In this document: piece by piece, positions 9,201 to 29,806 of the stretch
Layout of the letters: each line of letters opens with the position of its first letter
Position numbering within the stretch: the stretch's first letter is position 1
DNA from: an uncultured archaeon
GTDB lineage: Archaea; Iainarchaeota; Iainarchaeia; Iainarchaeales; JAAZKV01
Direction: 5' to 3'
Assembly: GCA_964551375.1 (NCBI GenBank)
Contig: CAZKBG010000002.1
Location: 64,962-96,961 of the forward strand
DNA length: 32,000 nucleotides
Notes under the pieces: generated by a model
Database searches by the model: none
Seen by the model: only the letters and a program-made list of their open reading frames with translations
Told to the model about the DNA's origin: nothing
Translations under genes and position numbers: made by a program

Positions 9201-12200
9201 CTATTTGAAGCAACTACAAACAAGCTTGGAGTAGCAACAATACAAATACCAGCATCACTTCCAGGCGAAAGATTAGTTCTTTCAATTGAAAAATCAGAAT
9301 ACGAAACAGTGAGAAAAGATATTGTAATTGCAGAAGATGTAGTAAGCGTAGACCCAACTTCACTAAACTTCACAGTTAACCCGCAGTCAAAACTAACAGA
9401 TATGAAAACAGTGAAAATCACAAACGAAACAGCAATTGACCTTTATATAAAAAGCATAACACTAACAGGAAAACTAAAGGGAGTTCTTGACGAAGCCTCA
9501 ATTTCAGCATGGTTTGAGAACTTTAAAGGAAAGAAAATAAAATCACAAGACTATGAAGAAGTAGTATTCAAAGTAGCAAGCGCAGCAGTAGTTCCAACAG
9601 CAGAAGACCTTGAAGGAACATTTAACATTACACTAATATCACAGGGAAAAGAATGGGTAAAAGAAATCCCTGCAAAAATCAGAGTAGGACTTGGAAAAGA
9701 TGTTGACAACCAATCATGCCTTGAAGTAACAAAAACAATGTGGGACACAACAACAAGAGGAGCGCAGGTTGAAGCATCATTTGAACTAAGAAACAACTGC
9801 ACAGTAAACGGAGCGCCAGTAATTTTGAAAAACATCGGCGCAACAGTATCACAATCAACAACAGTAACAGGCACATTTAATGCGCAGTCAAAGAACATAC
9901 AAGTAGAACTTGGAAGCGCATTTGCAAGAATATTTAAAACATCAATGGACAAGGGGGAGAAAGTTCCAGTAACAATAAAATTCACCCCAATGCCAGGCTC
10001 AGCAGGAATAGCAACAGGCTCAATAATATTTGAAGCGCTGAATAATACTGACTCAAAAGCGCAGAAACTAACTGCTGAAATGAAATACAATATAATTTAC
10101 GAAAACTTGCAGGACTGCGTAGTGCTTGGAGCAGACGAATTAACAATTGAAGAAGAAGGAAGCGGAACATTTACAGTAAACAATAACTGCAAATCAAAAG
10201 TAGATGTTATACTAAGACCACAAGACTTGCAGGGCTCAATAAATAACACTGACTTTAAATTAAACGCAGGAGAAAACAAAGAAGTAACTGTAAAATCATA
10301 CAAAGGGCAAATAGCAGGAGCATACAATGTAGTTCTTGAAGCAAGAAGCACAGGAGCATCACTTGAACCGGTTGCAAATATTAAAGTAATAATAGAGCCA
10401 AAATCAAGCTGCTTTAAACTTACAAGATACGTTTATGATATATTTGACTACGAAGACAGCGTAAATCCATTTGACGGAATAGACAGAGGATACTTAATCA
10501 ACAACTGCGTTACAAAGAATGTAACAGCAAAAGTAACAGGAACTATTCCTTACGACTCATCAGCAATCCTAAAAACAATGCTATGGGGCGGACTAGTAGG
10601 CGGAGTAACAGCATACTTTAAGACAGGAAAATTTTGGCCAGATTCATGGTTCAACAAAAAGGACCCAAAAGTATCCTCAAATATACAAACAGGATACACT
10701 GATGTAGCGCACGCTCAAAGATCTGAACTTACAAGAGTAAGCACAGAAATGCAAACAGCAAAAGAAACAAATTACGGACAAATAGACGCTAAACTAAAGG
10801 CGCTTAAGAAACAAGCCGATGACACTAATGCAAAAGTAGTGAATAGATATAACTTAAATCGCGCAGAATGCGAAAAAATCTCAGCTAACCCTGCTGATGC
10901 TTCAAGAATTGCATGCTTAACAAAAGCAACTTCAATAAAAGCAGACGCTCAAGCAATAATTACAAAACAATACGCTGCCGCTGAAACTGATATTAATGCG
11001 TTAAGAGAAAAATTAAAGAAAGCTGAAGCAGAGTTCTCAACTCAATTAAAAGCTTCAGGCGAAAAGATGGATTCATACACAGAACAGCAGAGATCAAACG
11101 CTTCATTCCAAGTAGGACAAGGAACTATAAACAATGAGAAAGCAAACAGAGAAATGGACGCAACTCTAAGAGCAAATATTTCAAACTTAAGAAACGAAAT
11201 GAACGCAAAGATTGACGCATGGAATGGATACAGAAGCGACTTCATGAACACACTTTACAAGAAATATGAAAAACTTGACTTAAGCGATGTAGAGAAACAG
11301 AAGAATAACAAAATAACAGCTGATGCGGCTAAACCTGAAAAGTACTCATTAACAACTGCAGCGCTTGACGCAGTAACAGTTGACAAAGTAGAAGAGAAAG
11401 AGTTCTCAACAGCTCCAGCAATTACTGCTATTGACACAACAAAATCAGGACCAAGCCAGATAGCATCAAATGGACTTGCATCAACTAATGCTACAACTGT
11501 AACTGCGACTGATGTAATAACATCATCAGATGGATATACTTTGATTAAAGATGATGGAACAAATCCAAGCGCGGCTCCAGCTGATTATCAGCCTATGAAC
11601 AGTTTGACAAGCAATATTGGAAGATATTACAGAAATCCTGAAAGTTTAATAGTCCGCCCAACTGGTAATGATTCTTACACAGTAACAAGAAATGACGGGC
11701 AGTTAATTGGGACTTGGAGTTATAATAATTCAGTTTGGACTGAAACAATTGATTCAAGCACAAATTACTATGATAGTTCATTTAATCACTTAAAGAAAAA
11801 TGCTAAAGTTGACGGCTTTTTCCTGCTTGCAACAAGCGGAACAGGAGCTTCAACAGGAAGCACTTCATCTTCTGGCTCAAACTCAAACCAGTCAAGCGGA
11901 ATGAACGCAATATTAAACGGAGTAATTGGATACGGAGCAGGCTCGGTAATGCCTAACGGACTTGGCGGAGCACTTGCAGGCGCATTAACTACTGGATTTA
12001 TGCAGTGGATGCAGGCGCAAGACACTACAGTAAATTACAAAGACACTTTCGAAATGAACTGGATTGAATTTGTAAGTGCAACACTGGACAGCCCAAGCGG
12101 AGTAAAAATGGATGTGGGCGAAGCAATGTATGATTATGAAACTTACTACGGAACAACAGTAACTGGAAGCACAGTTTCAGAAACTACAAACGCAACATAC

Positions 12201-14513
12201 TCAGGAAACATAAAATACAACGCAGAAGCATTGAATGCTACAGTTGGAACAGTGGAAGAAAGAGAATTGACATTCACAAACAGCGGAAAACTAATCCAGG
12301 AAAAGAAATGGACTCCGTTTGTAGGATTAATGACAGTAAAAGGACAAGAAAAAATATATGATACTACTTACAAATATGATGAGATTAAGGAAAAAGCAAT
12401 AGAAAGAGGAGACTACGAAGAAGAAGACGGGTTCTTTGACAACTTCTTCTCAGGACCAAACAATGTAGGCGAAATAGCGCAAATAGCCGACTCTGATATT
12501 GATGTTAACTCGGTAAGATCATACGAAAAGAAATTCCACTTGCTGTTTGAAGCATGGCAGTACGTTGATTGCGGACCAAGAACATACGCTTGCCCAATAA
12601 AACAAAACGTAAGCTGTGACGTGGATGGAAAGAAAGGAGTAACAGGACCTGAAGGAGTTCCAAGAATATTACTTGACTGGACTTGGGGCGGAGTAGCAAA
12701 GAATGAATGCGACTCGGATGTAAAAAGCACAGGCGACAGATCAGCTTCATACAATTACTGCGACACAACACAATTGACAATTTCAACACTAAAGAAACTA
12801 AGCGAACTAAGGGATTTCTTCTCAAGCCCGACTTACTACTCAAACTTACAGTGCCCAAAAGCAATTGACATAGCAGGAACAAAGACACAAAAATTAAGCG
12901 AAACAGCAATTGATATTGGAATAACAAGCATACAAATGATACCAAATGAAAACGGCGCAACAATAGAAACAATTGTTGAAACAACAAATAATGTTCCAAT
13001 GCAGGCAAAAGTAGCATTCACTTTAACTCGAGCTGACGGCAGCGCAGTTAACGCAAACTGCCCTGAAGAGACAAAAACAATAACAAGCAGCGGCAAATTC
13101 ACTTGCACTGTTACACAAACAGGAACAGGAAGCATTGGAGTAGGAACATTCAATGTAGTTGCAGTCATGACTCCAACAATAGTAGCTGGAGTAGAGGATA
13201 ATGTTGCAAGCAATAATATAATTACAGCTTCACTAATAATGGGAAGCACAGGCGCAGCGCAGTGCCTTGGATACAGCACACAAAAAGAAGTGCTTGAAAA
13301 AGTATTCGCAGCAAGTTCAGCAGGCGGAACAAATGTGCTTGAATCAAAGAAATACCTGCTTGAAGATGTGTCATTTAAAGCAAACTTAATCAGAGACGGA
13401 TTCAGTAAAGACTTCAAGGAAGACTTTGACGCATGGGCAATGCAGATACTTGCATCAGCTCCTGAATACAATAACTTAAGAGAATTATTCTTAAGCGACA
13501 AATTCAGCGTAAAATGGCCAACAAAAGGAAGCTCTCCATGGGACGCAGGCAAGTACGACGCTAAATTAGTTGTAACATTCAAAGACAACTGGAAATGGGA
13601 CTACAATAATATTGAATCAGTAGTTCTTGATTTGTCACCACAGGGCGCTCCAGACCCAGACTTTACAATATACAATGTTCCATTTGACGGAATGATTGGA
13701 ATTAATTCTGATGACGGAAGACAAGGATACGGAGCAGATTACGTTCAAAAAACTGAAGACATATTCCAAATAGCTGAAACTGCTGGAAATGTTGTAGCAC
13801 AGCCAAAAGCAGGAAGCAACGCAGCAACAAGAGTAAATATGTCAGTAATTAAAGGAACAAATGCATTCACATTACTAAACAGCTCTCCAACAAGAGGAAA
13901 TGTATTAAGCATTTATAGAATCGGAGACGATGTTGATTTCACAATCACTCCAAGCCTTGCAGTGCCGGTAATACTTGATATTGAAAGAAAAGCAGAAAGC
14001 GATGCAGCAGCATTCTACACTGCAGAAGTAAACGGACAGCCGCAAGAAACAGGAACAAGCTTTATCTCATGGACTGGAATCGGACAGGGATGCGTTGCAT
14101 TTGACGGAACAAGCATGACACAGTACTATAATACTCCTGATTACAAAGCAAATTCATGCTTCATTGGATATGACGGATACGGACTATGCTGGCCAATGGC
14201 AAAAGTATCAGGAAAATCATCCTTCTACGGACAATTCTTCGCTCCACAGGACACAGTAACAGTTCTAAAAGTTACAGGCTCTAAAGGAACAGCAGGATTT
14301 TACACTACATTTGGAGAAGGCACAACAATACAAGTTGGAACAACAGGCAGCGAAATAAGAACGCTTGAAAAAGTGCTTGCGCTTGTAAAAGAAAAGAAAG
14401 TATGTGTAATCGGCGGAGACTACTACTGGAATAATTCTGAATTCACAGGCGACACTGAGTTCAAATCACAGATGAACGCCCGCGAAAACACATGCATTGA
14501 CAAAAGACCTTAA
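6240..14513 (+). CDS. Giant membrane-anchored surface protein, paralog 2 (2757 aa)
   Basis: Uninterrupted 8.27-kb ORF. The N-terminus has the conserved motif KGIYYSGEEKWYAFWDKVD followed by a hydrophobic anchor (TFALFLIIIFLILLFAGYALLGG). At least 6 CarboxypepD_reg-like repeats (e.g. GTVKVIAKDRDANPLQFAEVQLFDEYDG...VVKKEGYESY). Cys-bracketed Ig-like modules (CLEVTKTMWD...RNNC; CVVLGADELT...NNNC). Two internal Gly-rich hydrophobic segments flank a coiled-coil/Ser-Thr-rich region. The C-terminal module is shared with paralogs 1 and 3. Confidence 0.92.
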   Translation: MGIGESLKGIYYSGEEKWYAFWDKVDAHIPVYKVIDPIDSVIPTFALFLIIIFLILLFAGYALLGGIAPATATLKLSVVDSDGMGVSGATVTVEGVDGEFYSNDFGLIEDLIVPFNSTLEVNAEKGESKTTIPITIDEFEKIAEVVLPVERISFEQKTIRFQSEDGALIQSELRLHYTCSSGVAAPEDVTIYTGSANLAQPANCGTLEVEVTSSKYERARFSVSGPSGVFTLKLLAPVEKGRATVNLKYESRLITEQVTVQAFRADNAFLPVNSATSVNGQVQFELPLGDYKFKSLMQSGYKQKESSVVSITKANSNPVIDLDLQKEIIGVIVVQAKENGAALSGVHMSLTKKLLTRQEPVIDRDTNEGGYVQFEIAEDANYTVTATKDNYCEVSVAVSIGDSRVISMKQNDSTCGYKLIARVIDQDNKPVAHAKAAIFIETAEDIYKMPRAEQVTGYNGDANWNPVRKTNSDEKFKVFAYKASYSGWSEARVFDSLSSSTPFVVKLEIPMGTVKVIAKDRDANPLQFAEVQLFDEYDGTAVSGRKLIENADGSIEFNLKADKRVYAVVKKEGYESYTTLPTMMVAGGTITFDVELFKPPVQEIFVRSLGFFKNGTPVLKVEPSQEYDALFELTAPSTKTYSELGFFVRMGADNMTKTELDKIFIKDVMASGVKSIVTGATYNKPMGYYNTDSKYTNLEESKWAEIKWPMNGYVPGKIIVGVKVKIRPTAQAEERLELGYRAWGKTTSGVYERDLIDDELGTSQSSTTKQELYASTKPDYITVGMETLCDTPESGKSFCITATYTDPDGFTKSFNDSFDTKNNTPYNVSIKIMNNSTVGFDDAKIMVENPEENLYMGTMTAVTPRFSPSEINVNGYATDWIDMPRYVKNSSIEIQSMQLTPQKTGTGTLLVKIREGASMIYEKAFTVNIASDKKLTVRFMKGGVFGDEMPKLVSGKTELLTVKALNTVSGLEVQDAVVKLFDRFGTKLFEATTNKLGVATIQIPASLPGERLVLSIEKSEYETVRKDIVIAEDVVSVDPTSLNFTVNPQSKLTDMKTVKITNETAIDLYIKSITLTGKLKGVLDEASISAWFENFKGKKIKSQDYEEVVFKVASAAVVPTAEDLEGTFNITLISQGKEWVKEIPAKIRVGLGKDVDNQSCLEVTKTMWDTTTRGAQVEASFELRNNCTVNGAPVILKNIGATVSQSTTVTGTFNAQSKNIQVELGSAFARIFKTSMDKGEKVPVTIKFTPMPGSAGIATGSIIFEALNNTDSKAQKLTAEMKYNIIYENLQDCVVLGADELTIEEEGSGTFTVNNNCKSKVDVILRPQDLQGSINNTDFKLNAGENKEVTVKSYKGQIAGAYNVVLEARSTGASLEPVANIKVIIEPKSSCFKLTRYVYDIFDYEDSVNPFDGIDRGYLINNCVTKNVTAKVTGTIPYDSSAILKTMLWGGLVGGVTAYFKTGKFWPDSWFNKKDPKVSSNIQTGYTDVAHAQRSELTRVSTEMQTAKETNYGQIDAKLKALKKQADDTNAKVVNRYNLNRAECEKISANPADASRIACLTKATSIKADAQAIITKQYAAAETDINALREKLKKAEAEFSTQLKASGEKMDSYTEQQRSNASFQVGQGTINNEKANREMDATLRANISNLRNEMNAKIDAWNGYRSDFMNTLYKKYEKLDLSDVEKQKNNKITADAAKPEKYSLTTAALDAVTVDKVEEKEFSTAPAITAIDTTKSGPSQIASNGLASTNATTVTATDVITSSDGYTLIKDDGTNPSAAPADYQPMNSLTSNIGRYYRNPESLIVRPTGNDSYTVTRNDGQLIGTWSYNNSVWTETIDSSTNYYDSSFNHLKKNAKVDGFFLLATSGTGASTGSTSSSGSNSNQSSGMNAILNGVIGYGAGSVMPNGLGGALAGALTTGFMQWMQAQDTTVNYKDTFEMNWIEFVSATLDSPSGVKMDVGEAMYDYETYYGTTVTGSTVSETTNATYSGNIKYNAEALNATVGTVEERELTFTNSGKLIQEKKWTPFVGLMTVKGQEKIYDTTYKYDEIKEKAIERGDYEEEDGFFDNFFSGPNNVGEIAQIADSDIDVNSVRSYEKKFHLLFEAWQYVDCGPRTYACPIKQNVSCDVDGKKGVTGPEGVPRILLDWTWGGVAKNECDSDVKSTGDRSASYNYCDTTQLTISTLKKLSELRDFFSSPTYYSNLQCPKAIDIAGTKTQKLSETAIDIGITSIQMIPNENGATIETIVETTNNVPMQAKVAFTLTRADGSAVNANCPEETKTITSSGKFTCTVTQTGTGSIGVGTFNVVAVMTPTIVAGVEDNVASNNIITASLIMGSTGAAQCLGYSTQKEVLEKVFAASSAGGTNVLESKKYLLEDVSFKANLIRDGFSKDFKEDFDAWAMQILASAPEYNNLRELFLSDKFSVKWPTKGSSPWDAGKYDAKLVVTFKDNWKWDYNNIESVVLDLSPQGAPDPDFTIYNVPFDGMIGINSDDGRQGYGADYVQKTEDIFQIAETAGNVVAQPKAGSNAATRVNMSVIKGTNAFTLLNSSPTRGNVLSIYRIGDDVDFTITPSLAVPVILDIERKAESDAAAFYTAEVNGQPQETGTSFISWTGIGQGCVAFDGTSMTQYYNTPDYKANSCFIGYDGYGLCWPMAKVSGKSSFYGQFFAPQDTVTVLKVTGSKGTAGFYTTFGEGTTIQVGTTGSEIRTLEKVLALVKEKKVCVIGGDYYWNNSEFTGDTEFKSQMNARENTCIDKRP

Positions 14514-14658: not shown

Positions 14659-17600
14659 ATGGCTGATGGAATAAAGGGAGTTTACTATGCTATTGAAGAT
14701 AAATGGTACGCTTTCTGGGACTCGGTTGACAGAGTTCTTCCAGTAGGCGGAGTAATTGACGCAATTGACACAGTAATTCCAAGCATGATACTTTTTATTT
14801 TAGTAATAATACTATTAATCGCATTTGGCGCATTCTTTTTACTAAGCGCAAACCAAGTATTTGACGCGACATTCACAGTTCAGACATTTGACGGCAGACC
14901 AGTGAATGACACTCTTTTAAGCGTTGAATTAATGGAAAATGGGGAGCTTGTAAAAACATTTGAGCAAAGAACTGATTCAGTTGGAGTTGTTACATTTAAT
15001 GCAATAAAGATGGGGCAGGAACTGATTTTTGATATTAACATAAGCAAAGGAACATTCAGCGGCTCATTTGTTATGGGCGAAGGCGCAATGGATGAAGTAA
15101 TAACGCTTGAAGAAAGAAGAGTGCCGCTAAATCTTTCCCCAGTTGTGAAAAAAATACTTGTAAAAGAATCAAGCGGATTTTTAGCAAGAGAACCTATTTC
15201 ATTAGTTTTTGGATGCGAATCATCAATTGTTCTTCCAAACCCATCAAAAGCAACTTTTTCAGGAACATTTGCAGTTGAAGTAACTGAACCAGTTGGATGC
15301 CGTTTAACTGCGACAGTAAATAATCCAAAGTACAAGCAGAAGACTTATTTAATTCAGTCGACAAATTATGATTTATTCCTTGAGCCAATAGAGCCGGTTG
15401 GAACACAATTAAAAGTAATAATCCGCTCTGCAGGATTTCCTGTAAGCGGAACAAATTTTAAAATAAAAATAACAGGAGACGCTAGTTACGAACTTGCAAC
15501 AACAGGCGAATCACAGGCAAGCGCAAATGTTAACCCCGGAAATTACTTAATCACTGTTACTGACCCAAAAGGAAATTATGGTTTAGTATCCAAAAATGTT
15601 ACTGTCACTTCAACAACAGAAGTTTTGGTGGAAGTATCAAAAACTGTAAAAGCACGGGCTACTATAAAAGTAATTGACAGCGAAACAGGCGTTGCAATTT
15701 CAAACGCAATTGTAAATTTAAGAGATTCATTTGGAAGAGAACTTGCAACTCAATTAACTGATAGCCTTGGATATACAACATACAGCTTTACTGATTTAGG
15801 CGATTATTCATTCATTGCTAAAAGAGCAGGGGACCTTAACGGAGGATACCTTCCAAAGGAATCGAAACAGACAATTTCAACTGATACAAATTTTACAATG
15901 GCGCTTGAGGCAATTACAGAAGAAAATGCAGGGAGAACAATTGTTACTGTGTACGATCAGGACAAAGTTCCAGTAGCAAATGCAAAAGTAATGCTGAAGT
16001 ACAAAGAAAATGACGGGCTTGTTGAACTAATGCAGGAGAAAAATTACGGACTAACTGACGCAAACGGAGAAGTATCACTAATTGCTGGACAGCCTTCCGG
16101 TTCAGTGTACGCTTACGCAATAAAAGGACCGTTTAACGGAGCATCAATGGACAAAAGGCTTGCAGTTGAAGCAATAAACAAATTTAATATCGAAATGGAA
16201 ATAGGAAGCGCAACAGTAAAAATAAACGTGCTTGACGAATCAGGAAACAAACTTGACGCAACAGCAGAAATACACTTAGTAAGCGGAGTGAGCGCTGATG
16301 AACACGGAATAGCTGGACTAATACCTGTTGAAAGCGGATATGCAGCAAGAAGCGTAAAAGCAGGACAAAAAGTATTTGTAAAAGTAATGGCTGAAACATT
16401 CGAAGACTATTACACAGCCCCAATTGATTTATGGCCTGACAGACCATATGACCTTGAAATTGTGATGCTGAAAAATATAGCTGAAGCAAAAATACTTCCA
16501 AAAGGAGTGTATAATGCAGACGGCGCTTTAGTTCAAACAATGGCTGCAGGAAAGAGATATTATGCTAAATTTTACATCTTATCAAACAGCGCATATGCAA
16601 ATGTAAAATTTAATTTCAGAGCGGGAAAAGAATCACTCCTTGAAAATGACATAATGGAAGTTGATGAAGTAGAAGCAAGCGGACTAACTTCACAGGCAAG
16701 AGGAGTAAGCTATGATCCTCAAAAAGGATATGATTTTGACGGAAATATTCTAAACCGAACAGACGGACTCTCAAAATGGGTTGAAATGGAATGGACTTCA
16801 TTTGGAAAAGGACTAAGAGAAGTAAAAGTATGGTTTAGAATAAAAAACACCGCTGCTCCAAACCAAGAACTTCAATTCTTCTACCGTGGAAAGTTTGATA
16901 ACTTAAGAAAACCTGAAAGCACTGCAGCGCTTGACTTTTACGCAGACACTTATTTCTCAGAAAAATTCTACGTTGGAGCAGAAACAATCTGCAAAGAGGG
17001 CTTCTGTGCAAACTCTGAATGGCTGTACTCCACAAAAAGCGAGCTTTACGTTGACGAACCTTACTCAATAAAACAGACAACAAATTACAATTATCACATA
17101 ACTTTACTTAACAATTCCGGAATTGACTACGGAACTTCAAAAAAACCAGTGACTTTGTCAATTTACGTGATGGGCGATGATTCTGACGACAAGAAAATCA
17201 AAATCAAAAGCTATGAAATAAAGGACTCCATTGGAAGGCTTACAAATAACTCCGCAATATACAGCGCTGAGAACTTATCCATTACTTCATTTGAGAAAAG
17301 CTCCACAATTGACATGCTTTTCAGCCTTGAAGGAATAAAACAGGGCGCAGAAGCGCTTAAGTTTGAGTTAAAATCAGAAGGAAAAATAATTTACTCAAAA
17401 GAAACTGACATAAAAGTTGTGAGAGAAAAAGACTTTAATGTTGGAATATCTCCTCAATTCATCCCTGCTTTGATTAACACAATGATAGAAGTTACAATAG
17501 TGGATGAAAAAGGCGAACCGCTTCCAGGCGCAACAGTAAATGTTTATGCAAAAGAGCCAGGATACGCGCAGTACCCGATTGATTCAAAAGAAACCGACAG

Positions 17601-20600
17601 GCTTGGAAGAGCTGAAGTAAAATCAGGAGCGCATTTTACAAAAACAAAAGTTATAATTGAAATAATAAAAGAAGGATACTCAAGACAAATGTTCTCAACA
17701 ACTGTTTCGGACGATTTAATCATTGCGTCTCCAGAAGAGCTGTTTGTTGAATTAAACACATTTTCAAAAAGAGAAGAAGTTAAAAAAGTTGAATTCGCAA
17801 ACCTTTCAAGAAGCAAAATGGTGCTAAAAAATATAGTTCTTGACTCAAAGTTCAAAGACTTGATAAATGAAGAAGCATTAAACGCATATTTTGAAGAACT
17901 GACACTTGAACAAAAGACAGTGAAGGGAGAGGACACGCTTGAAATAGAATTTATGAAAATAAGGCTTGCGAATTCAATTAACGAAGATAATTTCATTGAA
18001 CCTATTACTGTAGAAGGAATTGTAAAATTAGTATTTGTAGAACCTGAATCAGGGCTTACATTCAATATAGAACTTCCACTAAGAGTAAATGTATCCTCAA
18101 GCGCAAATCCAGACGCTGAATGCCTGATAATAAAACCAACAAGCAAAACAAGCATGACAACAGAAAACGCGCAGGTTAGATTTAATTTTGAATTAATCAA
18201 CGCATGCACTTCAGACGGAGTAGGAATACCTCTTCAATCGCTAATGGTGCAAGCTCCTGCTGAAATACCAGGAATTGCTGAAATAAGCCTAAGAAACTCA
18301 ACAGGCTCCTCAATTGGAATTACAGCTCTTGACGGCGGAAAAAGAAAATTAGTGGATAATGTCCGCGCAAACGAAAAATTATTCGGCGAAATAACATTTG
18401 CTCCAGGCCAAGAAGCGGTTGGCAAATCAGTACAGATTGCAGTTTCGTACGAAGCAAAGTTTAAGGGAACTACAGTAACAAGCAGTCCTTCAACAGTGAC
18501 TTATACAGCAAATGTAGTAAACCTAAAAGAATGCATGACAATAAGCTCCGAATCAGCTCCTGTTGAATTTAAGGGCAAATCAAAAATCAAAATTGACACA
18601 ACAGCATGCCTTGGGCAAATGATTGACATAATACTTTGCAAAGAAGATTCAGGATGCTCGGGTGGAGCGGACGGTAAAATTGTTTTAAGCAAAAAAACAT
18701 TCACACTTCAAAACAAAGCAGAAGAAATTGAAGCATATAATCCAACATACCCTGGAACTTACGGCGTAACAGTGCACGCAAGAACCAGAGGAACAGCAGG
18801 ATTCTCATACATAGGCGAAGTGCCTGTATCTTTCCTTGAATCTGAAACTAAATACTTCAACTTAAACAAATTTGAATTAACTTTAGTTGGAACAGGCGCA
18901 AAGGACTCAATCATACTTACAAACAAAATGATTTCAGAAACTATAAATGTAAAAGCGGATGAATGCACCTGGGGAAAAGAAGACGCAGAATTTAACTGGT
19001 CAAGCGCATTAACAGGCGCAATGATGGGCGCAATGCTTGGAAACCTAATTGGCTCTGCATACCACCCTGGAACAAAAGACAGCAAAAGCGGGAAAGACAA
19101 AAGTGGCGGAAGCGATGTTGAAGGGATGGACGCAAAAACAAGAGGTGAGGAAATCAGCAGATTAAATGACCTTGAAGCAAAGGGAGGGTTAAGCAGGGAC
19201 CAAGTAGCATATAGAAATGACTTAATCAGCGCGCAAAATAGATTTACAACAGGATATGATTCTTTTATCAACGGCGCAACTGCGCTTAATACGGGAGTGG
19301 ATGTAAGTTCAAGCTCTTCACTATCTTCAGTATTTGGCTCAGGCTCAGCAGCAAGCCTTGGAGTAGGAGAATCAACAACAATGGATACTGAAATGGGAAC
19401 AGTAAGAGTAACAAATATGGGAAACAATGAATACTTTGTACGCTCAAACAGCATTCCTTCAGGAAGAACATACACGGGGGATGTGCAGCTTGGAACAGTT
19501 GGAAATCAATTCGCAAATGCTTATTCAAATACTTCAGGACTTAGAAATTTCTCAAATTCACTTACAATGCCTTTTAGAACCACTCCAAGCACAACAACAT
19601 TAAATCCTTCAACAACAGGGTGGTCAGCTGCGACATATGGGGAAGTTGGACGAATACCAACAAGATATTTTGTTAACCTTCCTGCAATAATACATGCGCA
19701 GGAAAATGCATTGAAAGCAGATTCAAATAAATTATTATTAGCTGGCTCGGGCGGAAGTAGCACAAACTGGGTTCAAATATCACTAACAATAATCGGAGCA
19801 GTAGTTGGCGGATGGCTAATGGGCGACTCAGGATACAAATGCGCTGATAATTACGATGTTGTTCCAATGGAAGACTTTGTAATACTACTTCAGGGAACAA
19901 CAGTTGACTACACAGGACCGACAGGCGAAACAAGCGGAGAAAGAGTAATACCATCAGATGCAGGAGCATTAACATTTACTCTGGACAATATTGCTCCAGC
20001 ATGGAACTTTGAAGACGCGCAGTACGGATCTGAAGAAACTGTTGCAATTGACTTCGAAAATAACGGACTCAACGAGCCTGTTCCAAGATACGGCACATTC
20101 ACTGTGAATGCAAATGTACACAACCATGGAAGCGTAGTTCACAAAGTTGACGGAAGCACTCACACAAGCACTGGAGAAAGCGATTATGATGTATTCTGCA
20201 ATAACGAATCATTTGGAAGCTTTTGGATAGGCTCTGAAAGCAATCAGGGAGACTGCGGAACAGGCGGGAGAATTTCAGTAAGCAATTATTCTCAGAAGTA
20301 TCATTTAAGAGTAATCAGCGGAGAGCCAAAGGATGAAGAATCTTACATTAAGAAAGCAACAACATGCTATATGGGAGCTCTAACTGGAGCAACAGGAAAA
20401 GAAGCATTGCCAAAAGTAAAACTTGACTGGACATGGGACTCAATTAAAGCAGATACATGCGATTACACAAATCCTGACCACGTTTATTGTGACGGAACTC
20501 AATTCATGATTTCACTTACAAAGAAACTATCTCAGCTTCAGAAATTCATGAGAACAAACGGGGGCAAATTTGAATGTCCTCCTGACGAAATAGAAAATGA

Positions 20601-22275
20601 AGTGCAGAATGCAATTGAAGAAGTTAATTCAAAAGTGAATGAAGTTCCTGACGGATTTATCGGAATATCTGATATATCCTTGACTCTTGATGTTGTTACA
20701 GGGGAAGCAGTTCCTACAATAAAAATAAACAACAGGTCGGGAAAAGTTGAAACATCATACTTAAGCTTTGCATGGAAAGGACAGGGCGAAGCAACTCCAG
20801 AATACCCAAGCAATGTAATTGAATGGGATGTTCCAATCGGAGAAAGCACAAGAGTACTTGACTCAGTAGTAGTTTCAAAATATGAAGGAGTATATTACTT
20901 CACAGCAGTAATGAACGGACCGATGGGAGACTCAAGATCATTATCAAGAGCATTCCTATATAGAGACACAAACGGAACCTGCTGGATGCCGCAGACAACA
21001 GATTCAATTGCAGGACTTCCAGGACTTGCATTCTACGTAGCAGCAATGGACAACCCTACTTACACTGAAGGGGTAAGCGATCCGTCAGAATTGTACAATC
21101 ACATAAACTTTGGAATGTACCTAACAAAAGAAACATTTAGTGAAGACTTCCTAAGAGACTTCAAGGATTATTACGGAGGGGGCATACTCCAAATATCAGA
21201 TCCTGACGAGCAGGATATTGTAAATTACTTAACATCAGGAAATTTTAAGATAAAGAAAAAATTCTCGGGAGACAACACAATTGAGCCTGGACTTTATGAT
21301 GTTTGGGTAAGATTAAACGCAAAAGACAAATTCCTTGTAATTGACGGAAACAATACAAATATGACAATAGAACTTTTAATGATTAGAAGACCAAGCGTGG
21401 ACAGTCCGTTTTACATGATACCATTTGATGGAAGACTTGGAGAAAGAGGCGGAAGACAAGGATACGGAGCAGTTTACACAAGAGGGGAAGGCGAAAGCGA
21501 CATTGAAATAAGCAATTACAGCCAGAATGGAGTTTATACTTTCTACAATGCGGCAAGCAATGGTGTAATAAAAGTTACAACAAAAACAAAAACAAGCTTT
21601 GAAGGTGTAAACTCATCAGTATCAACAAGAGGACAGCTTGGAGCGGTAAGCGTGTCAGGCTCAACAGCAGAAATGATACTCACTCCAAATTATGCGACTC
21701 CTGTAATTTTAAAGAACACAATTGACGGCACAGAAGGAAACATTGCATTCAGCGTTGAAAATCCAAACAGAGCAGTTGTTACAAGAGGAAATATAGCATA
21801 CTGGACAGGCGCTGCAAAAAGCAAAGATTACTTTGGAGCAAACGCAGTTGAATCATATTATAATTCGCCTGACTTTAGACTATCAAAACTCGGAGAGAAC
21901 GTATTCGGATTTGAATACAGAAACATTTCAAAGAAAGGCACAATGTACCTAAAAACCACTTTATTCACTCCAGTGGATCAGGCATCATACATGCTTACTT
22001 CAAAGAACAGCACTACAAAATTCTGGACTCCTGAAACAACATTCACTGAAACAGTTGACTTAAAAGGAATAAGCGGAATGGCTTACAATGCGCCAGGCGA
22101 TTACATTAACTCATTGCAGGATTTATTCACAGCAGTTGAAAATAATGAAGTGTGCCTGTCAAATGACGGCTCAAGCACCACATTCTGGTGGAACCCAGTT
22201 GCTATTGAAGGAACTGTGGGCTCGCTTGGAAGAAGCTTATACCACGAAGAAGTTGCATTAGTTGGAGTGAACTAA
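14659..22275 (+). CDS. Giant membrane-anchored surface protein, paralog 3 (2538 aa)
   Basis: Uninterrupted 7.6-kb ORF. The N-terminal KGVYYAIEDKWYAFWDSVD motif plus anchor (MILFILVIILLIAFGAFFLL) is colinear with paralog 2. Multiple CarboxypepD_reg-like repeats (ATIKVIDSETGVAISNAIVNLRD...; RTIVTVYDQDKVPVANAKVMLKY...; VTIVDEKGEPLPGATVNVYAKE...). A GxxxG-zipper segment GAMMGAMLGNLIG starts at the same residue number (1447) as the equivalent segment in paralog 2. C-terminal motifs shared with paralog 2: LDWTW, C..TQ...KKLSQL, PFDGRLGERGGRQGYGAVY. Confidence 0.92.
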   Translation: MADGIKGVYYAIEDKWYAFWDSVDRVLPVGGVIDAIDTVIPSMILFILVIILLIAFGAFFLLSANQVFDATFTVQTFDGRPVNDTLLSVELMENGELVKTFEQRTDSVGVVTFNAIKMGQELIFDINISKGTFSGSFVMGEGAMDEVITLEERRVPLNLSPVVKKILVKESSGFLAREPISLVFGCESSIVLPNPSKATFSGTFAVEVTEPVGCRLTATVNNPKYKQKTYLIQSTNYDLFLEPIEPVGTQLKVIIRSAGFPVSGTNFKIKITGDASYELATTGESQASANVNPGNYLITVTDPKGNYGLVSKNVTVTSTTEVLVEVSKTVKARATIKVIDSETGVAISNAIVNLRDSFGRELATQLTDSLGYTTYSFTDLGDYSFIAKRAGDLNGGYLPKESKQTISTDTNFTMALEAITEENAGRTIVTVYDQDKVPVANAKVMLKYKENDGLVELMQEKNYGLTDANGEVSLIAGQPSGSVYAYAIKGPFNGASMDKRLAVEAINKFNIEMEIGSATVKINVLDESGNKLDATAEIHLVSGVSADEHGIAGLIPVESGYAARSVKAGQKVFVKVMAETFEDYYTAPIDLWPDRPYDLEIVMLKNIAEAKILPKGVYNADGALVQTMAAGKRYYAKFYILSNSAYANVKFNFRAGKESLLENDIMEVDEVEASGLTSQARGVSYDPQKGYDFDGNILNRTDGLSKWVEMEWTSFGKGLREVKVWFRIKNTAAPNQELQFFYRGKFDNLRKPESTAALDFYADTYFSEKFYVGAETICKEGFCANSEWLYSTKSELYVDEPYSIKQTTNYNYHITLLNNSGIDYGTSKKPVTLSIYVMGDDSDDKKIKIKSYEIKDSIGRLTNNSAIYSAENLSITSFEKSSTIDMLFSLEGIKQGAEALKFELKSEGKIIYSKETDIKVVREKDFNVGISPQFIPALINTMIEVTIVDEKGEPLPGATVNVYAKEPGYAQYPIDSKETDRLGRAEVKSGAHFTKTKVIIEIIKEGYSRQMFSTTVSDDLIIASPEELFVELNTFSKREEVKKVEFANLSRSKMVLKNIVLDSKFKDLINEEALNAYFEELTLEQKTVKGEDTLEIEFMKIRLANSINEDNFIEPITVEGIVKLVFVEPESGLTFNIELPLRVNVSSSANPDAECLIIKPTSKTSMTTENAQVRFNFELINACTSDGVGIPLQSLMVQAPAEIPGIAEISLRNSTGSSIGITALDGGKRKLVDNVRANEKLFGEITFAPGQEAVGKSVQIAVSYEAKFKGTTVTSSPSTVTYTANVVNLKECMTISSESAPVEFKGKSKIKIDTTACLGQMIDIILCKEDSGCSGGADGKIVLSKKTFTLQNKAEEIEAYNPTYPGTYGVTVHARTRGTAGFSYIGEVPVSFLESETKYFNLNKFELTLVGTGAKDSIILTNKMISETINVKADECTWGKEDAEFNWSSALTGAMMGAMLGNLIGSAYHPGTKDSKSGKDKSGGSDVEGMDAKTRGEEISRLNDLEAKGGLSRDQVAYRNDLISAQNRFTTGYDSFINGATALNTGVDVSSSSSLSSVFGSGSAASLGVGESTTMDTEMGTVRVTNMGNNEYFVRSNSIPSGRTYTGDVQLGTVGNQFANAYSNTSGLRNFSNSLTMPFRTTPSTTTLNPSTTGWSAATYGEVGRIPTRYFVNLPAIIHAQENALKADSNKLLLAGSGGSSTNWVQISLTIIGAVVGGWLMGDSGYKCADNYDVVPMEDFVILLQGTTVDYTGPTGETSGERVIPSDAGALTFTLDNIAPAWNFEDAQYGSEETVAIDFENNGLNEPVPRYGTFTVNANVHNHGSVVHKVDGSTHTSTGESDYDVFCNNESFGSFWIGSESNQGDCGTGGRISVSNYSQKYHLRVISGEPKDEESYIKKATTCYMGALTGATGKEALPKVKLDWTWDSIKADTCDYTNPDHVYCDGTQFMISLTKKLSQLQKFMRTNGGKFECPPDEIENEVQNAIEEVNSKVNEVPDGFIGISDISLTLDVVTGEAVPTIKINNRSGKVETSYLSFAWKGQGEATPEYPSNVIEWDVPIGESTRVLDSVVVSKYEGVYYFTAVMNGPMGDSRSLSRAFLYRDTNGTCWMPQTTDSIAGLPGLAFYVAAMDNPTYTEGVSDPSELYNHINFGMYLTKETFSEDFLRDFKDYYGGGILQISDPDEQDIVNYLTSGNFKIKKKFSGDNTIEPGLYDVWVRLNAKDKFLVIDGNNTNMTIELLMIRRPSVDSPFYMIPFDGRLGERGGRQGYGAVYTRGEGESDIEISNYSQNGVYTFYNAASNGVIKVTTKTKTSFEGVNSSVSTRGQLGAVSVSGSTAEMILTPNYATPVILKNTIDGTEGNIAFSVENPNRAVVTRGNIAYWTGAAKSKDYFGANAVESYYNSPDFRLSKLGENVFGFEYRNISKKGTMYLKTTLFTPVDQASYMLTSKNSTTKFWTPETTFTETVDLKGISGMAYNAPGDYINSLQDLFTAVENNEVCLSNDGSSTTFWWNPVAIEGTVGSLGRSLYHEEVALVGVN

Positions 22276-27184: not shown

Positions 27185-27280
27185 AAATAACACACATTAG
27201 TAAAATTAACCTGGCTATTATTAAATAGGTTTTGATACTTAAAAATGTATTGTATGCAGAAAGAAAGAAAAGAGAAAGCA

Positions 27281-29806
27281 ATGCTTCTTGACGCAACTTA
27301 TTTTGATTCAAGCGAAAAATCTGAAATTGCATTGTACTGCTTTGACGGCAAAAGCCATTACTGGGTAAAAGACACAAACTTTCTGCCCTACTTGTACATC
27401 TTATCTTCAAAAGCTGATGTTAAGAGAACCGCAAGCGAAGTGCTGAATTTGACATTCGGCTCTGAAGAAAAGTTCAAGGCAAAAACTGCCTCACAAACGG
27501 AGCTTATCTGCAAAGGCAAATCAGTTATAAAAGTTGAATTTAACAAAGTCTCCCAGCTTGTTTTAGCAAGAAAAACATTCTCCGAAGCAGGATATGAAAA
27601 GCATGAATATGACATTCAATATTCAAAAAGATATTTGCTTGACAAAAGACTTGAGCCGGGAAACTGGGTTGAATACACTGTTGTTTCTGAAGAAAAAACT
27701 GCTGAAAAGAGCGCATCTGCCAAAGATTTAGAAAATAAAACTGCTGATTTTGAAAGCGAAGACGAAGAAGGGGTTTTGAAGCTCCCAGTTGAAGGAAAAA
27801 TTAAGGTAATCAAAGATGCGCATGCAATTGACGGGGAATTTATCGGCAGAGCAACTGCGTTTGATCTTGAAACAAAGATGGGCAAAAAGTTTACTATTGG
27901 AATTGAGCCAATATTAATGGTTTCAGTAGTGGCAAATGATGTGGGGTTAGCTTCGTCAAAGCCAAATTATGAACGAGTAATGTCCTACGGCACCGCAAAA
28001 GTTCCAAATCTTGAAATGCTTAAAGATGAAAAAGAGCTTGTTGAAAAAACAATAACTGAACTAAATCACGATAATAGTTTTATTGTAACTTATAATGGGG
28101 ATAATTTTGATTTTGCTTATACAAAAGAGCGCGCAAAGAAATTCAAGCTGGATTATTTGGTAAATGGAATATCCCCAAGGACTATGCGAAAAGGAATTGA
28201 TAATGCAGTAAAGTTAAGCGGAGTCCAGCATATAGATTCATTTCAGATAATGCGATTTCTTCAAAGAACAGGCGCAGTGAATGTATCCAAACTTGATATT
28301 GAAAGCGTTTCAGAGAAAGTATTTGGGGAATGGAAAGAAAAAGTCCTTCCTAAAGAAATTACCGAAGCATGGGAAAGTAAGGATAAGAAAAAACTTGAAA
28401 GGCTTGTGGATTACAACTTGAAAGATTCAAGAGTTGCATTAAAAATTGCAAAAGAATTTCTTCCATTGTTTGTGGAAATATCTAAACTAACTTCCCAAAC
28501 GCTTTACGAAACAACAAGAAACACCACTTCCCAAATGGTTGAAGATTTGCTCCTCAAGGAAGCTCATTATCGCGGAATAGTTGCGCCAAACAAGCCGAAA
28601 GAAAATGAAGTAACTCAAAGAACAATGAATCCAATTAAAGGGGCATTTGTAAAAGAGCCCTTAGCAGGGCTTCATGAAAACTTAGCAGTGCTTGACTTTG
28701 CCTCGCTTTATCCAAGCATAATAATAAGCCATAATATTTCTCCTGATACCTTGAACTGCGCTCACGAAGAATGCAAAAAAAATGTTTCTCCAGACGGCAC
28801 ATGGTTTTGTACATATGAAAGAGGGTTATTCCCGCAAATACTTGAAAGCATGCTAAAGCAAAGACTTGTATTAAAACGCGAATACAAACGCAAGAAAAAA
28901 GAAGATGGAATTGATGATAAAGTTTTATTTGCAAAACAATGGGCGCTCAAAATTATTCTAAACTCGGTTTATGGATACTTGGGGTATCCAAGGGCAAGAT
29001 GGTACTCAAGAGAATGCGCAAGCGCAACAACCGCCTGGGAAAGAGATTATATTCACAAAACTATTACAAAAGCTGAAAAAGAGGGATTCAAAGTATTATA
29101 CGGCGACACTGACTCTGCATTTATTTTAATGAATAAAAAAACACGTGATGAAGTAAAGGATTTTGTTGAAGGAGTGAATAAAGAGCTTCCAGAAGATATG
29201 GAGCTTGAAGTGGACGGGTTTTATAAAAGAGGAATATTTGTGACAAAAAAAGAAGGAGGCGCGGCGAAGAAAAGATACGCATTAATGGATGACAAGGGCG
29301 CGTTAAAAATTGTCGGATTTGAATATGTAAGAAGAGACTGGTGCATGCTTGCAAGAGAAACCCAAAAAAAAGTAATAGAACTAGTGCTAAGCGAAGGAAA
29401 ACCGGAAAAAGCGGTTGAATATGTAAGAAATGTAATTAAAAATTTAAAAGAAGGCAAAGTGGAGAAGAAAGAATTAGTAATAATGACAATTCTTCAAAGA
29501 GAGCCAAAAGATTATGATTCAATCGGCCCTCATGTTGCGGCTGCGGAAAAAGCAATTGCGCGAGGAAAAGAACTTGGAGTGGGCTCAATGCTGAGTTTTG
29601 TTATAAAAAAACCAACCAAAGGAAAAGAAAGCATTTCAGAAAAAGCAGAGCTTGAAGAATATGTGAGCGAAGGCGATTATGATGTTGATTACTATCTTGA
29701 AAACCAAGTAATTCCTGCCGTTATAAAGATACTTGCAGAACTCGGATATTCAAAAGAAGATTTACTCACAGGCGGAAAGCAGACTGGATTAAGCGCATGG
29801 GGTTGA
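27281..29806 (+). CDS. polB: Family B DNA polymerase (archaeal type)
   Basis: All motifs are present and contiguous: Exo I FDLET, Exo II YNGDNFDFAY, Exo III DYNLKD, Pol A LDFASLYPSII, Pol B KIILNSVYGYLG, Pol C YGDTDS, plus KKRYAL. The start at 27281 (MLLDATYF, the usual archaeal PolB N-terminus) is preferred over the upstream ATG at 27245. Confidence 0.95.
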   Translation: MLLDATYFDSSEKSEIALYCFDGKSHYWVKDTNFLPYLYILSSKADVKRTASEVLNLTFGSEEKFKAKTASQTELICKGKSVIKVEFNKVSQLVLARKTFSEAGYEKHEYDIQYSKRYLLDKRLEPGNWVEYTVVSEEKTAEKSASAKDLENKTADFESEDEEGVLKLPVEGKIKVIKDAHAIDGEFIGRATAFDLETKMGKKFTIGIEPILMVSVVANDVGLASSKPNYERVMSYGTAKVPNLEMLKDEKELVEKTITELNHDNSFIVTYNGDNFDFAYTKERAKKFKLDYLVNGISPRTMRKGIDNAVKLSGVQHIDSFQIMRFLQRTGAVNVSKLDIESVSEKVFGEWKEKVLPKEITEAWESKDKKKLERLVDYNLKDSRVALKIAKEFLPLFVEISKLTSQTLYETTRNTTSQMVEDLLLKEAHYRGIVAPNKPKENEVTQRTMNPIKGAFVKEPLAGLHENLAVLDFASLYPSIIISHNISPDTLNCAHEECKKNVSPDGTWFCTYERGLFPQILESMLKQRLVLKREYKRKKKEDGIDDKVLFAKQWALKIILNSVYGYLGYPRARWYSRECASATTAWERDYIHKTITKAEKEGFKVLYGDTDSAFILMNKKTRDEVKDFVEGVNKELPEDMELEVDGFYKRGIFVTKKEGGAAKKRYALMDDKGALKIVGFEYVRRDWCMLARETQKKVIELVLSEGKPEKAVEYVRNVIKNLKEGKVEKKELVIMTILQREPKDYDSIGPHVAAAEKAIARGKELGVGSMLSFVIKKPTKGKESISEKAELEEYVSEGDYDVDYYLENQVIPAVIKILAELGYSKEDLLTGGKQTGLSAWG

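Follow-up and report, generated by a model that had tools for sequence, protein, structure and literature searches.

Midway along giant 3, a surface protein of a small uncultivated archaeon of the Iainarchaeota (DPANN), a cassette of two glycine-rich hydrophobic segments (seg1 and seg2) separates the Ig-like array from the C-terminal head. On balance, the two segments probably form a two-helix membrane hairpin, clamped by a disulfide, that anchors the protein a second time at this point and leaves the variable loop between the helices in the cytoplasm. We infer both the insertion into the membrane and the cytoplasmic location of the loop. The segments would be the arms of a single helical hairpin, located at the junction of two extracellular β-sandwich domains, that enters the cytoplasmic membrane of the archaeon itself and most probably crosses it. 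A disulfide between Cys1436 and Cys1728 would shut the base of this hairpin, the glycine stripes of its arms (G1453/57/61/65 and G1713/17/18/22) would pack together, and the loop of 235 residues would lie at its tip, which would then be cytoplasmic. The hairpin would act as a second membrane anchor that holds down the ~1,385-residue Ig-like array at its far end and the ~810-residue head at its start. All coordinates (Table 1) refer to the window, that is, the whole stretch of 32,000 nucleotides that was analysed.

Table 1. Features of giant 3, and their giant 2 counterparts, in window coordinates.
Feature	Position	Strand	Details
Giant 2 counterpart of seg1	10563..10619	+	residues 1442-1460, AILKTMLWGGLVGGVTAYF
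Giant 2 counterpart of seg2	11901..12014	+	residues 1888-1925; two short Gly-rich helices
Giant 3 gene	14659..22275	+	2,538 aa (ORF list and translation)
N-terminal membrane anchor of giant 3	14770..14862	+	uncharged core, residues 38-68
β-sandwich directly upstream of the cassette	18541..18963	+	residues ~1295-1435; AF2 strands, pLDDT 72-92
Cys1436, upstream member of the putative clamp	18964..18966	+	motif C-x-W-G; kept in 15/16 orthologues
seg1, glycine-zipper helix (predicted)	18997..19062	+	residues 1447-1468 (W1447-Y1468), WSSALTGAMMGAMLGNLIGSAY (GAMMGAMLGNLIG)
Variable loop	19063..19764	+	residues 1469-1702, ~235 aa, no Cys
Predicted helix-turn-helix inside the loop	19132..19248	+	residues 1492-1530; AF2
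seg2, second Gly-rich hydrophobic helix (predicted)	19765..19824	+	residues 1703-1722 (N1703-G1722), NWVQISLTIIGAVVGGWLMG
Cys1728, downstream member of the putative clamp	19840..19842	+	motif Y-K-C-x-D
β-sandwich directly downstream of the cassette	19843..20373	+	residues 1729-1905; AF2 strands

Architecture of giant 3 and its gene neighbourhood

The genome is archaeal (it encodes PolB and MetAP), and giant 3 is made up of an N-terminal anchor, an array of Ig-like/CarboxypepD_reg-type sandwiches, the cassette and a Cys-rich C-terminal part, with weak Pfam matches to bMG3, CarboxypepD_reg, SpaA and Big_1 and with orthologues of 41-56% identity. A conserved acidic motif of 37 aa precedes the core of the N-terminal anchor, no positive-inside signal was found on either side of this anchor, and giant 3 has no lipobox, the anchor standing in its place. 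The cassette is flanked by β-sandwich domains with conserved Cys on both sides, the downstream one opening with a conserved DFVILLQG and showing a pairwise identity of 51% among 16 orthologues. When the AF2 model was compared with the PDB by Foldseek, the matches were all generic sandwiches (Ig-like, adhesin or PapD-like), and none was to the hairpin. Two antisense ORFs that overlap the cassette (18759-19475 and 19673-19975) fall within the conserved reading frame and were regarded as shadow ORFs.

Four giants lie consecutively on the contig (C2), the g1-g2-g3 order recurs in at least seven MAGs, and five small membrane proteins and a HerA-like ATPase are encoded in synteny with the giants. 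Giant 1 has no hydrophobic segment of this kind. In the giant 2 family alignment the counterpart of seg1 is a shorter helix that contains K or D, and the variable loop of giant 2 holds a coiled coil of ~200 residues. The preliminary description had the first segment beginning at residue 1447 exactly as in giant 2; the giant 2 segment in fact begins at 1441/1442, but the two sites are still positionally homologous, the segment starting 44 residues beyond the end of the BLAST alignment in giant 2 and 42 residues beyond it in giant 3. An extended reading, to which we give only a slim chance, would make the hairpins of giants 2 and 3 the membrane core of a conserved cell-contact machine, in which the zippers assemble a ring or channel, the loops dock cytoplasmic parts and an adhesin is coupled to intercellular transport. 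The partners proposed for such a machine are the five small polytopic membrane proteins, two coiled-coil proteins and the HerA/FtsK-like ATPase, all of which keep their synteny with the giants throughout the Iainarchaeota genomes that were examined; its docking loops would be the Lys-rich helices of giant 3 and the coiled coil of giant 2.

Hydrophobicity and conservation of the two segments

Translation of 18997-19824 bears out the peptides quoted in the preliminary description, together with the glycine zipper and the second hydrophobic segment. The seg1 glycines (G1453, G1457, G1461 and G1465) form a perfect G-x3-G-x3-G-x3-G series, in agreement with the (G/A/S)xxxGxxxG motif, and the uncharged lengths of seg1 (22 residues) and seg2 (20 residues) are enough to span a bilayer. 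In a scan with a crude Hessa-type 19-mer scale, which omits the position-dependent terms of the complete predictor, only seg1, seg2 and the N-terminal anchor fall below +6 in all of giant 3, and nearly the same pattern of hydrophobic windows is found in every orthologue. The crude dG is -6.9 for the N-terminal anchor (KD 3.36), +4.9 for seg1 (KD 1.10) and +3.5 for seg2 (KD 1.53), as against -4.2 to +2.7 on the same crude scale for the helices of SecY, which is encoded in the same genome; the hydrophobicity of seg1 and seg2 in giant 3 is merely marginal. SecY served as the yardstick since an ATP-synthase c subunit, sought as a glycine-zipper hairpin for this purpose, is absent from the genome. 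That a SecY is encoded at all also speaks for the hairpin anchor. The marginal values of both helices relative to SecY count against a hairpin anchor, as does the circumstance that, with a loop of 235 aa between them, either helix would need to work on its own as a stop-transfer or re-start signal. Both segments are predicted to be helical by AF2, but at low confidence (pLDDT 52-67), a further point against the hairpin anchor.

By itself the four-glycine motif is unremarkable, because GxxxGxxxGxxxG occurs 65 times in the ORFs of this genome against 7 expected from composition, mainly in GLUG-like repeats and Gly-rich tails. This excess speaks for a reading of seg1 as a chance, low-complexity Gly-rich stretch that matches the GxxxG spacing but serves no structural purpose. 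However, it is conservation that raises the seg1 zipper above chance: among the 16 orthologues, G1453 is kept in 15, G1457 in all 16, G1461 in 14 and G1465 in 12, and within seg2 G1713 is kept in 13, G1717 in 15 and T1710 in 14. Both helices are found at the same site in 16/16 orthologues and, together with the Gly positions, in about 100 more distant relatives, and the Cys pair that flanks them co-varies. The chance reading is already refuted by these conservation data and retains next to no probability. On the isolated cassette, the Pfam glycine-zipper families stayed below their gathering thresholds (PF13441, 17.0-17.7 bits against 28.9; PF05433, 13.6-14.3 against 24.2; PF13436 and PF13488, 13-15.5 against 25-27), and a PDB sequence search with the cassette gave nothing meaningful (a single match, E 0.25).

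A hydrophobic element occupies the cassette site in most of 146 representative relatives. In many distant relatives a Gly-rich first helix and a turn lead into a second, strongly hydrophobic helix, with (E/D)DPC after it; this second helix reaches a crude dG of -2 to -4 and so matches or beats the SecY helices. Because the homologous helix is strongly hydrophobic in these relatives, embedding in the membrane is the best reading at the level of the family. Relatives with longer loops tend to be less hydrophobic, not more, which would count against the hairpin; the limits of the cassette are imprecise in the more distant sequences, however, which confounds this trend, and no weight is placed on it. 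In the orthologues without a loop (L010 and L011/P0012), an unbroken run of 52-53 uncharged residues reads as helix, Pro/Gly turn and helix, and the AF2 model of a loopless orthologue places helices at 153-173 and 182-203 between two β-sandwiches.

The segments might instead form the core of an extracellular helical bundle outside the membrane, within one chain or between giants, with an exposed, fast-evolving and probably glycosylated loop at its tip, an arrangement that we regard as somewhat unlikely. The marginal hydrophobicity in the clade of giant 3 would suit such a bundle, as would a loop that resembles extracellular Thr/Ser-rich linkers in composition and sequon density and that varies as strongly in length and sequence as exposed surface loops typically do; moreover, the Gly stripe and the conserved Asn1462 of seg1 (10 of 16 orthologues) would suit tight helix packing in any environment. 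However, the uncharged stretches of seg1 and seg2, and the longer ones of the loopless orthologues, would be hard to keep soluble, the second helix of many relatives would be integrated by a Sec translocon, and the loop-side flank of seg1 is the only K/R-rich flank in the otherwise acidic giant 3.

A co-varying cysteine pair at the ends of the cassette

Across 52 relatives, C1436 and C1728 are both present in 48 and both absent in 4, and neither is ever found singly. Joint loss, as in the orthologue L009, has taken place in at least two unrelated lineages, once with replacement by K/E. Because the pair co-varies, the two ends of the cassette probably meet and lie on the same side, which is most likely the extracellular one; we infer a contact between C1436 and C1728, for which a disulfide is proposed.

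Transmembrane glycine zippers are best known from homo-oligomeric channels and toxins, and the preliminary description had linked the zipper to homo-oligomeric helices and pore formers. Nothing supports the formation of pores by seg1 and seg2. The simplest partner for the Gly face of either helix would be the other helix of the same hairpin. The co-variation of the Cys pair fits intramolecular pairing of this kind, and AF2 predicts a helix-turn-helix.

Close to the pore-former idea is the possibility, which we consider rather improbable, of a weapon or docking device, in which the hairpin, kept extracellular on the tip of the Ig-like stalk, would enter the membrane of a partner or host and the zippers would oligomerise into a pore or fusion-like bridge. 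The Gly/Ala/Met-rich, moderately hydrophobic make-up of the segments is typical of fusion peptides and glycine-zipper toxins (e.g. T7SS glycine-zipper toxins), and the synteny of the giants with the small membrane proteins and the HerA-like ATPase is in keeping with such a role. The same holds for the dependence of DPANN archaea on cell contact and for the proposal that giant anchored proteins of a Diapherotrite serve cell-cell interaction (PMC5905446). However, the strongly hydrophobic second helix of the relatives would be captured by the cell's own translocon during export, and a polar tip loop of 235-363 aa would need to cross the target membrane. In addition, no toxin, fusogen or pore-former family was found by Pfam, Foldseek or PDB sequence searches, and the organism is without a known host.

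The variable loop and its putative side of the membrane

As the preliminary description had it, the two-segment architecture is conserved and the loop fully diverged, loop lengths ranging from 7 to 363 aa in the 16 orthologues, with loopless relatives besides. Pairwise identity among these orthologues is 48% in seg1, 40% in seg2 and 51-59% in the flanking folded domains, whereas the loop (14-17%) is unalignable. The same account spoke of a charged loop, but it is charged or helical in its first ~85 residues only: the start is Lys-rich and contains the predicted helix-turn-helix, and the remainder is rich in Thr, Ser, Gly, Asn and Pro and largely disordered. In the AF2 model (m9312557c3989) the loop helices are H198-213 and H219-236, in a block with pLDDT 75-79, and the loop outside its helices has pLDDT 22-38; the helix-turn-helix is common only to the closest orthologue, P0005. 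No Pfam or PDB match was obtained for the loop, and no DGR-type template or DNA repeat of it was found in the genome. Since distant relatives have a loopless hairpin, the loop of giant 3 is best read, from the sequence comparison, as an insertion that is specific to its lineage, is under weak constraint and was added to the tip of a membrane hairpin of older origin.

As for the compartment of the loop, two candidate markers were tested: the density of N-x-S/T sequons (1.73 per 100 aa, at least that of the ectodomains) tracks composition, and the lack of Cys is compatible with either side of the membrane. The loop's Thr/Ser/Gly/Asn/Pro composition and its sequons, which are as much like a glycosylated extracellular linker as a cytoplasmic segment, count against the hairpin anchor. 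The 15-aa flanks on the loop side contain 51 K+R versus 42 D+E, and those on the ectodomain side 35 K+R versus 94 D+E, a modest bias that comes mainly from fewer acidic residues on the loop side.

Relation to known systems

Hairpins inserted by the translocon in the model studies of von Heijne reportedly consist of two closely spaced hydrophobic helices joined by a Pro/Gly/polar turn. The giant 3 cassette resembles them in its two uncharged helices of ~20 residues with ends probably on the same side, in the Pro/Gly turn of the loopless orthologues and in the strongly hydrophobic second arm of many relatives. It differs in its place halfway along an extracellular protein of 2,500 residues, with a β-sandwich on either side, in a base that the co-varying Cys pair would clamp and, within giant 3's clade, in a variable tip insert of 95-363 residues and in arms of only marginal hydrophobicity.

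The glycine-zipper set of Pfam, which comprises PF05433 (Rick_17kDa_Anti), PF13441 (YMGG), PF13488 and PF13436 and represents outer-membrane lipoproteins of the SlyB/Pcp and YfgH types, offers a similar Gly-x3-Gly stripe on short, weakly hydrophobic helices in a two-helix membrane hairpin. However, those families are small bacterial outer-membrane lipoproteins, whereas the present hairpin would belong to a single-membrane archaeon, has sub-threshold scores and no lipobox, and lies inside a giant protein, split by a long loop. Kim et al. 2005 (PNAS) are said to have defined transmembrane glycine zippers, (G/A/S)xxxGxxxG; seg1 shares with these the perfect G-x3-G-x3-G-x3-G in an uncharged helix, conserved in the giant 3 orthologues, but its packing partner would be the hairpin's own second arm, and there is no sign of an oligomer or channel.

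Giant 3 also fits the description of giant surface proteins in Diapherotrites/Iainarchaeota (>1,800 aa, an N-terminal anchor and neighbouring copies). In Ca. Forterrea multitransposorum, a Diapherotrite, membrane-anchored giants (>1,800 aa) encoded as a cluster have been described, and a part in cell-cell interaction was proposed for them (Probst and Banfield 2018; PMC5905446). The likeness, which is one of description, lies in the same phylum-level group and in several N-terminally anchored giants side by side; the mid-protein hairpin, Cys clamp and variable loop are not described in that account.

Implications

The cassette is a compact unit of 70-300 residues whose topology, disulfide and oligomerisation are directly testable, and the series from loopless forms to inserts of 360 residues is a natural experiment on what the tip of a marginally hydrophobic hairpin will tolerate. 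Giant surface proteins take up a large share of the ~1-Mb genomes of DPANN archaea, and giant 3 would otherwise be expected to be a fibre of ~2,500 residues with its N-terminus as the sole anchor. If the clamped hairpin is real, giant 3 would instead be fixed to the membrane at either end of the Ig-like array, with a head that has an anchor of its own.

Hydrophobic segments of the third giant protein

The genes for three giant surface proteins (g1, g2 and g3) lie head to tail in the window, which is archaeal (G+C 38%) and belongs to a 1.09 Mb genome in 10 contigs (93% complete). As judged from sequence, g2 and g3 are paralogues: BLASTP aligned residues 1-1405 of g3 with 3-1397 of g2 (23% identity, E 3e-56), as well as the C-terminal parts (1873-2512 with 2091-2731), with no g2/g3 alignment in the region between.

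Translation of 18997-19824 reproduced exactly the two Gly-rich hydrophobic peptides, here seg1 and seg2, quoted in the preliminary description. In a crude scan that summed the translocon free energies of the single residues in 19-residue windows (values after Hessa et al., 2005, without position terms), only three g3 windows fell below +6, namely the N-terminal anchor (-6.9), seg1 (+4.9) and seg2 (+3.5), with Kyte-Doolittle means of 3.36, 1.10 and 1.53, respectively. The two segments are thus, with the anchor, the most hydrophobic sites of g3, yet marginal as membrane helices, SecY helices of the same genome spanning -4.2 to +2.7 on this scale. The motif GxxxGxxxGxxxG is by itself not rare in this genome (65 occurrences versus 7 expected), its matches lying mainly in GLUG-like repeats and Gly-rich tails, and Pfam glycine-zipper families gave sub-threshold matches only. 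A second cluster of large proteins (C1:767543-788000; 1,134-1,994 aa), rich in GLUG-like repeats (VGGLVGY..G), supplies most of the genomic matches.

Coordinates and conservation of the features discussed
Feature	Window position	Residues or length	Conservation (16 g3-type orthologues)	Remarks
g1		2,525 aa in genome		5'-truncated in window
g2	6240-14513	2,757 aa
g3	14659-22275	2,538 aa
N-terminal acidic motif	14659-14769, 6240-6374			also genome C2:62192, C1:807844
seg1	18997-19062	1447-1468	48% mean pairwise identity	Gly at 1453, 1457, 1461, 1465
Loop		1469-1702	14-17% mean pairwise identity
seg2	19765-19824	1703-1722	40% mean pairwise identity
Flanking domains			51-59% mean pairwise identity
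G1453			15/16
G1457			16/16
G1461			14/16	Ala in rest
N1462			10/16
G1465			12/16
T1710			14/16
G1713			13/16
G1717			15/16
Family-B DNA polymerase (PolB)	27245-29806
Methionine aminopeptidase-type M24 peptidase	29913-30812

Conservation and the cysteine clamp

A word-based search recovered eight relatives of 2.0-2.7 kaa, and a genome scan 13 loci, of which seven show g1-g2-g3 in full and another three have g2 followed by g3. Both helices are kept in all 16 g3-type orthologues, with seg1 at residues ~1430-1460, and that the arrangement is due to chance seems extremely improbable. The intervening loop comprises 7, 7, 95, 102 or 193-363 residues; because the genome contains no further copy of its DNA, a diversity-generating template for it is unlikely.

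The segments are bracketed by C1436, 11 residues upstream of seg1 in the motif C-x-W-G, and C1728, 6 residues downstream of seg2 in Y-K-C-x-D, which together delimit what we term the cassette. Invariant in the first nine aligned proteins, both cysteines occur in 15 of the 16 orthologues, the exception (L009) carrying Lys and Glu instead. Among 52 non-identical relatives whose flank alignments extend to the cassette edges, 48 retain the pair, four lack it entirely and none shows a single cysteine; the four come from no fewer than two unrelated groups, one a long-loop clade and one the loopless P0112. Cysteine is absent from all 3,343 loop residues of the 16 orthologues (versus 0.9% elsewhere in the proteins). 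We read this co-occurrence as a probable disulfide, or at least a contact, shutting the base of the cassette, which would place both its ends on the same, presumably extracellular, side as the cysteine-rich beta-sandwich domains.

In AlphaFold2 models, built from alignments of 12 sequences only, a loopless orthologue (mean pLDDT 67.7) is predicted as a pair of confident beta-sandwiches (blocks at 70-92) connected by helices 153-173 and 182-203 (pLDDT 52-64). In the model of the window's g3 (mean pLDDT 56.6) both segments are helical at 52-67, and the loop holds a helix-turn-helix at 1492-1530 (75-79), the remainder scoring 22-38. Foldseek matched Ig-like adhesin or PapD-like sandwiches only.

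Wider family and paralogues

Profile searching across 1.84 billion representative proteins yielded 146 clusters, mainly giants of 2.2-2.65 kaa, most with a hydrophobic element at the equivalent mid-protein site. Many relatives are loopless: C-x-W and some 10-20 further residues lead into a weakly hydrophobic, Gly-rich helix, which a short turn (uncharged or Pro/Gly) joins to a second helix followed by (E/D)-D-P-C, and uncharged runs reach 45-65 residues. Their second helix is strongly hydrophobic (crude free energy -2 to -4); the Sec translocon would integrate a segment of this kind, and SecY is encoded in the source genome. As the series is graded, running from loopless proteins (L010, L011/P0012, P0073) to the window's clade with its loops of 235-363 residues, with inserts of ~70-140 residues in between (P0022, L004, P0009), the g3 loop is best regarded as a probable later insert in the tip of a pre-existing hairpin.

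The preliminary description put the start of the first segment at residue 1447 in g2 and g3 alike. For g2 this number does not hold, its segment starting at 1441/1442, but the site is homologous, 44 residues in g2 and 42 in g3 after the last aligned residue. The first helix of the g2 family is shorter, often with Lys or Asp inside (e.g. WKKILLDALIGGISGY), the second element consists of two short Gly-rich helices, the insert (286-662 residues) includes a coiled coil, and the cysteine clamp is not conserved. Further paralogue classes carry Ala/Gln-rich helical rods between the helices and clustered cysteines (CxxC, CC-x-C), and g1 has no such two-segment element. The claimed common architecture therefore stands as a family theme, with considerable variation.

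In place of any hydrophobic hairpin, g1 has low-complexity stretches, one Gly/Met/Tyr/Asn-rich (window 1170-1290, residues ~390-430 of the truncated frame; MGGMGMMGYGTNGYGSAYGG...) and others downstream rich in Tyr/Asn/Gln/Met; two downstream small membrane proteins end in Gly/His- or Gly/Met-rich tails. CPPC, CPVC or CPAC opens the second hairpin helix in the distant relatives P0037, P0052, P0058, P0089, P0103 and P0116, and clustered cysteines (CxxC, CC-x-C, C-x-C-x2-C) lie in the inserted Ala/Gln-rich rod of P0032, P0035, P0044 and P0053; these patterns look more like metal/redox sites than simple disulfide staples. Two 1,743-aa paralogues (C2:31846-37074, C1:200096-205324), counterparts of a shorter class (about 1,650-1,850 aa) of family representatives, share the pre-cassette domain (residues ~450-490) and have Gly-rich hydrophobic segments near residues 980-1010.

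Topology of the cassette

Points for a cytoplasmic loop are the charge of the 15-residue flanks (K+R 51 and D+E 42 on the loop side, 35 and 94 on the ectodomain side) and KDSKSGKDK right after seg1, the sole basic flank in the generally acidic g3. Counted against it are the loop's richness in Thr/Ser/Gly/Asn/Pro, its N-x-S/T density (1.73 per 100 residues versus 1.38 elsewhere) and its length, which would require each marginal helix to insert alone. The g3 cassette is probably a disulfide-clamped membrane hairpin of two helices, which would anchor the protein a second time, between its Ig-like array and C-terminal head, with Gly stripes packing one arm on the other and, at the tip, a weakly constrained insert that in this reading is cytoplasmic. 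That the helices bundle together outside the cell and expose the variable loop there appears unlikely. Insertion of the hairpin into the membrane of a partner cell is, in our estimation, quite improbable, and this analysis of the g3 cassette found no evidence for a pore.

N-terminal motif and genomic neighbourhood

Every giant of the family begins with a conserved net-acidic motif of 35-38 residues, approximately YY-x-x-E-x-KWY-x-F-x-D-K-x-D-x-x-x-P-V-x-x-V-I-D-x-I-D-x-V-x-P-S-F, directly upstream of the membrane anchor, a possible signal for targeting or assembly. The anchor has no positive-inside signal on either side (K+R 44 versus D+E 87, 12 orthologues); the genome's other large surface proteins have ordinary signal peptides and C-terminal anchors. 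An ATP-synthase c/K subunit (PF00137) was not found in the genome (estimated 93% complete), which encodes SecY; its absence is consistent with a reduced DPANN metabolism that depends on a host.

A Diapherotrite encodes five membrane-anchored proteins of >1,800 aa within one 42-kb region, for which a role in cell-cell interaction was suggested (Probst and Banfield, PMC5905446); an internal hairpin is not part of the published description. In the syntenic block around the giants (window 4994-27193; loci L001-L005, L007-L011 and L013), a 356-aa CarboxypepD_reg protein precedes g1, g2 and g3, after which come four or more small, polytopic membrane proteins and then a HerA/FtsK-like protein with a coiled-coil protein on either side; PolB comes next. 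Its members are 30-80% identical across Iainarchaeota loci (tblastn). The block has the appearance of a single conserved module for surface functions or contact.
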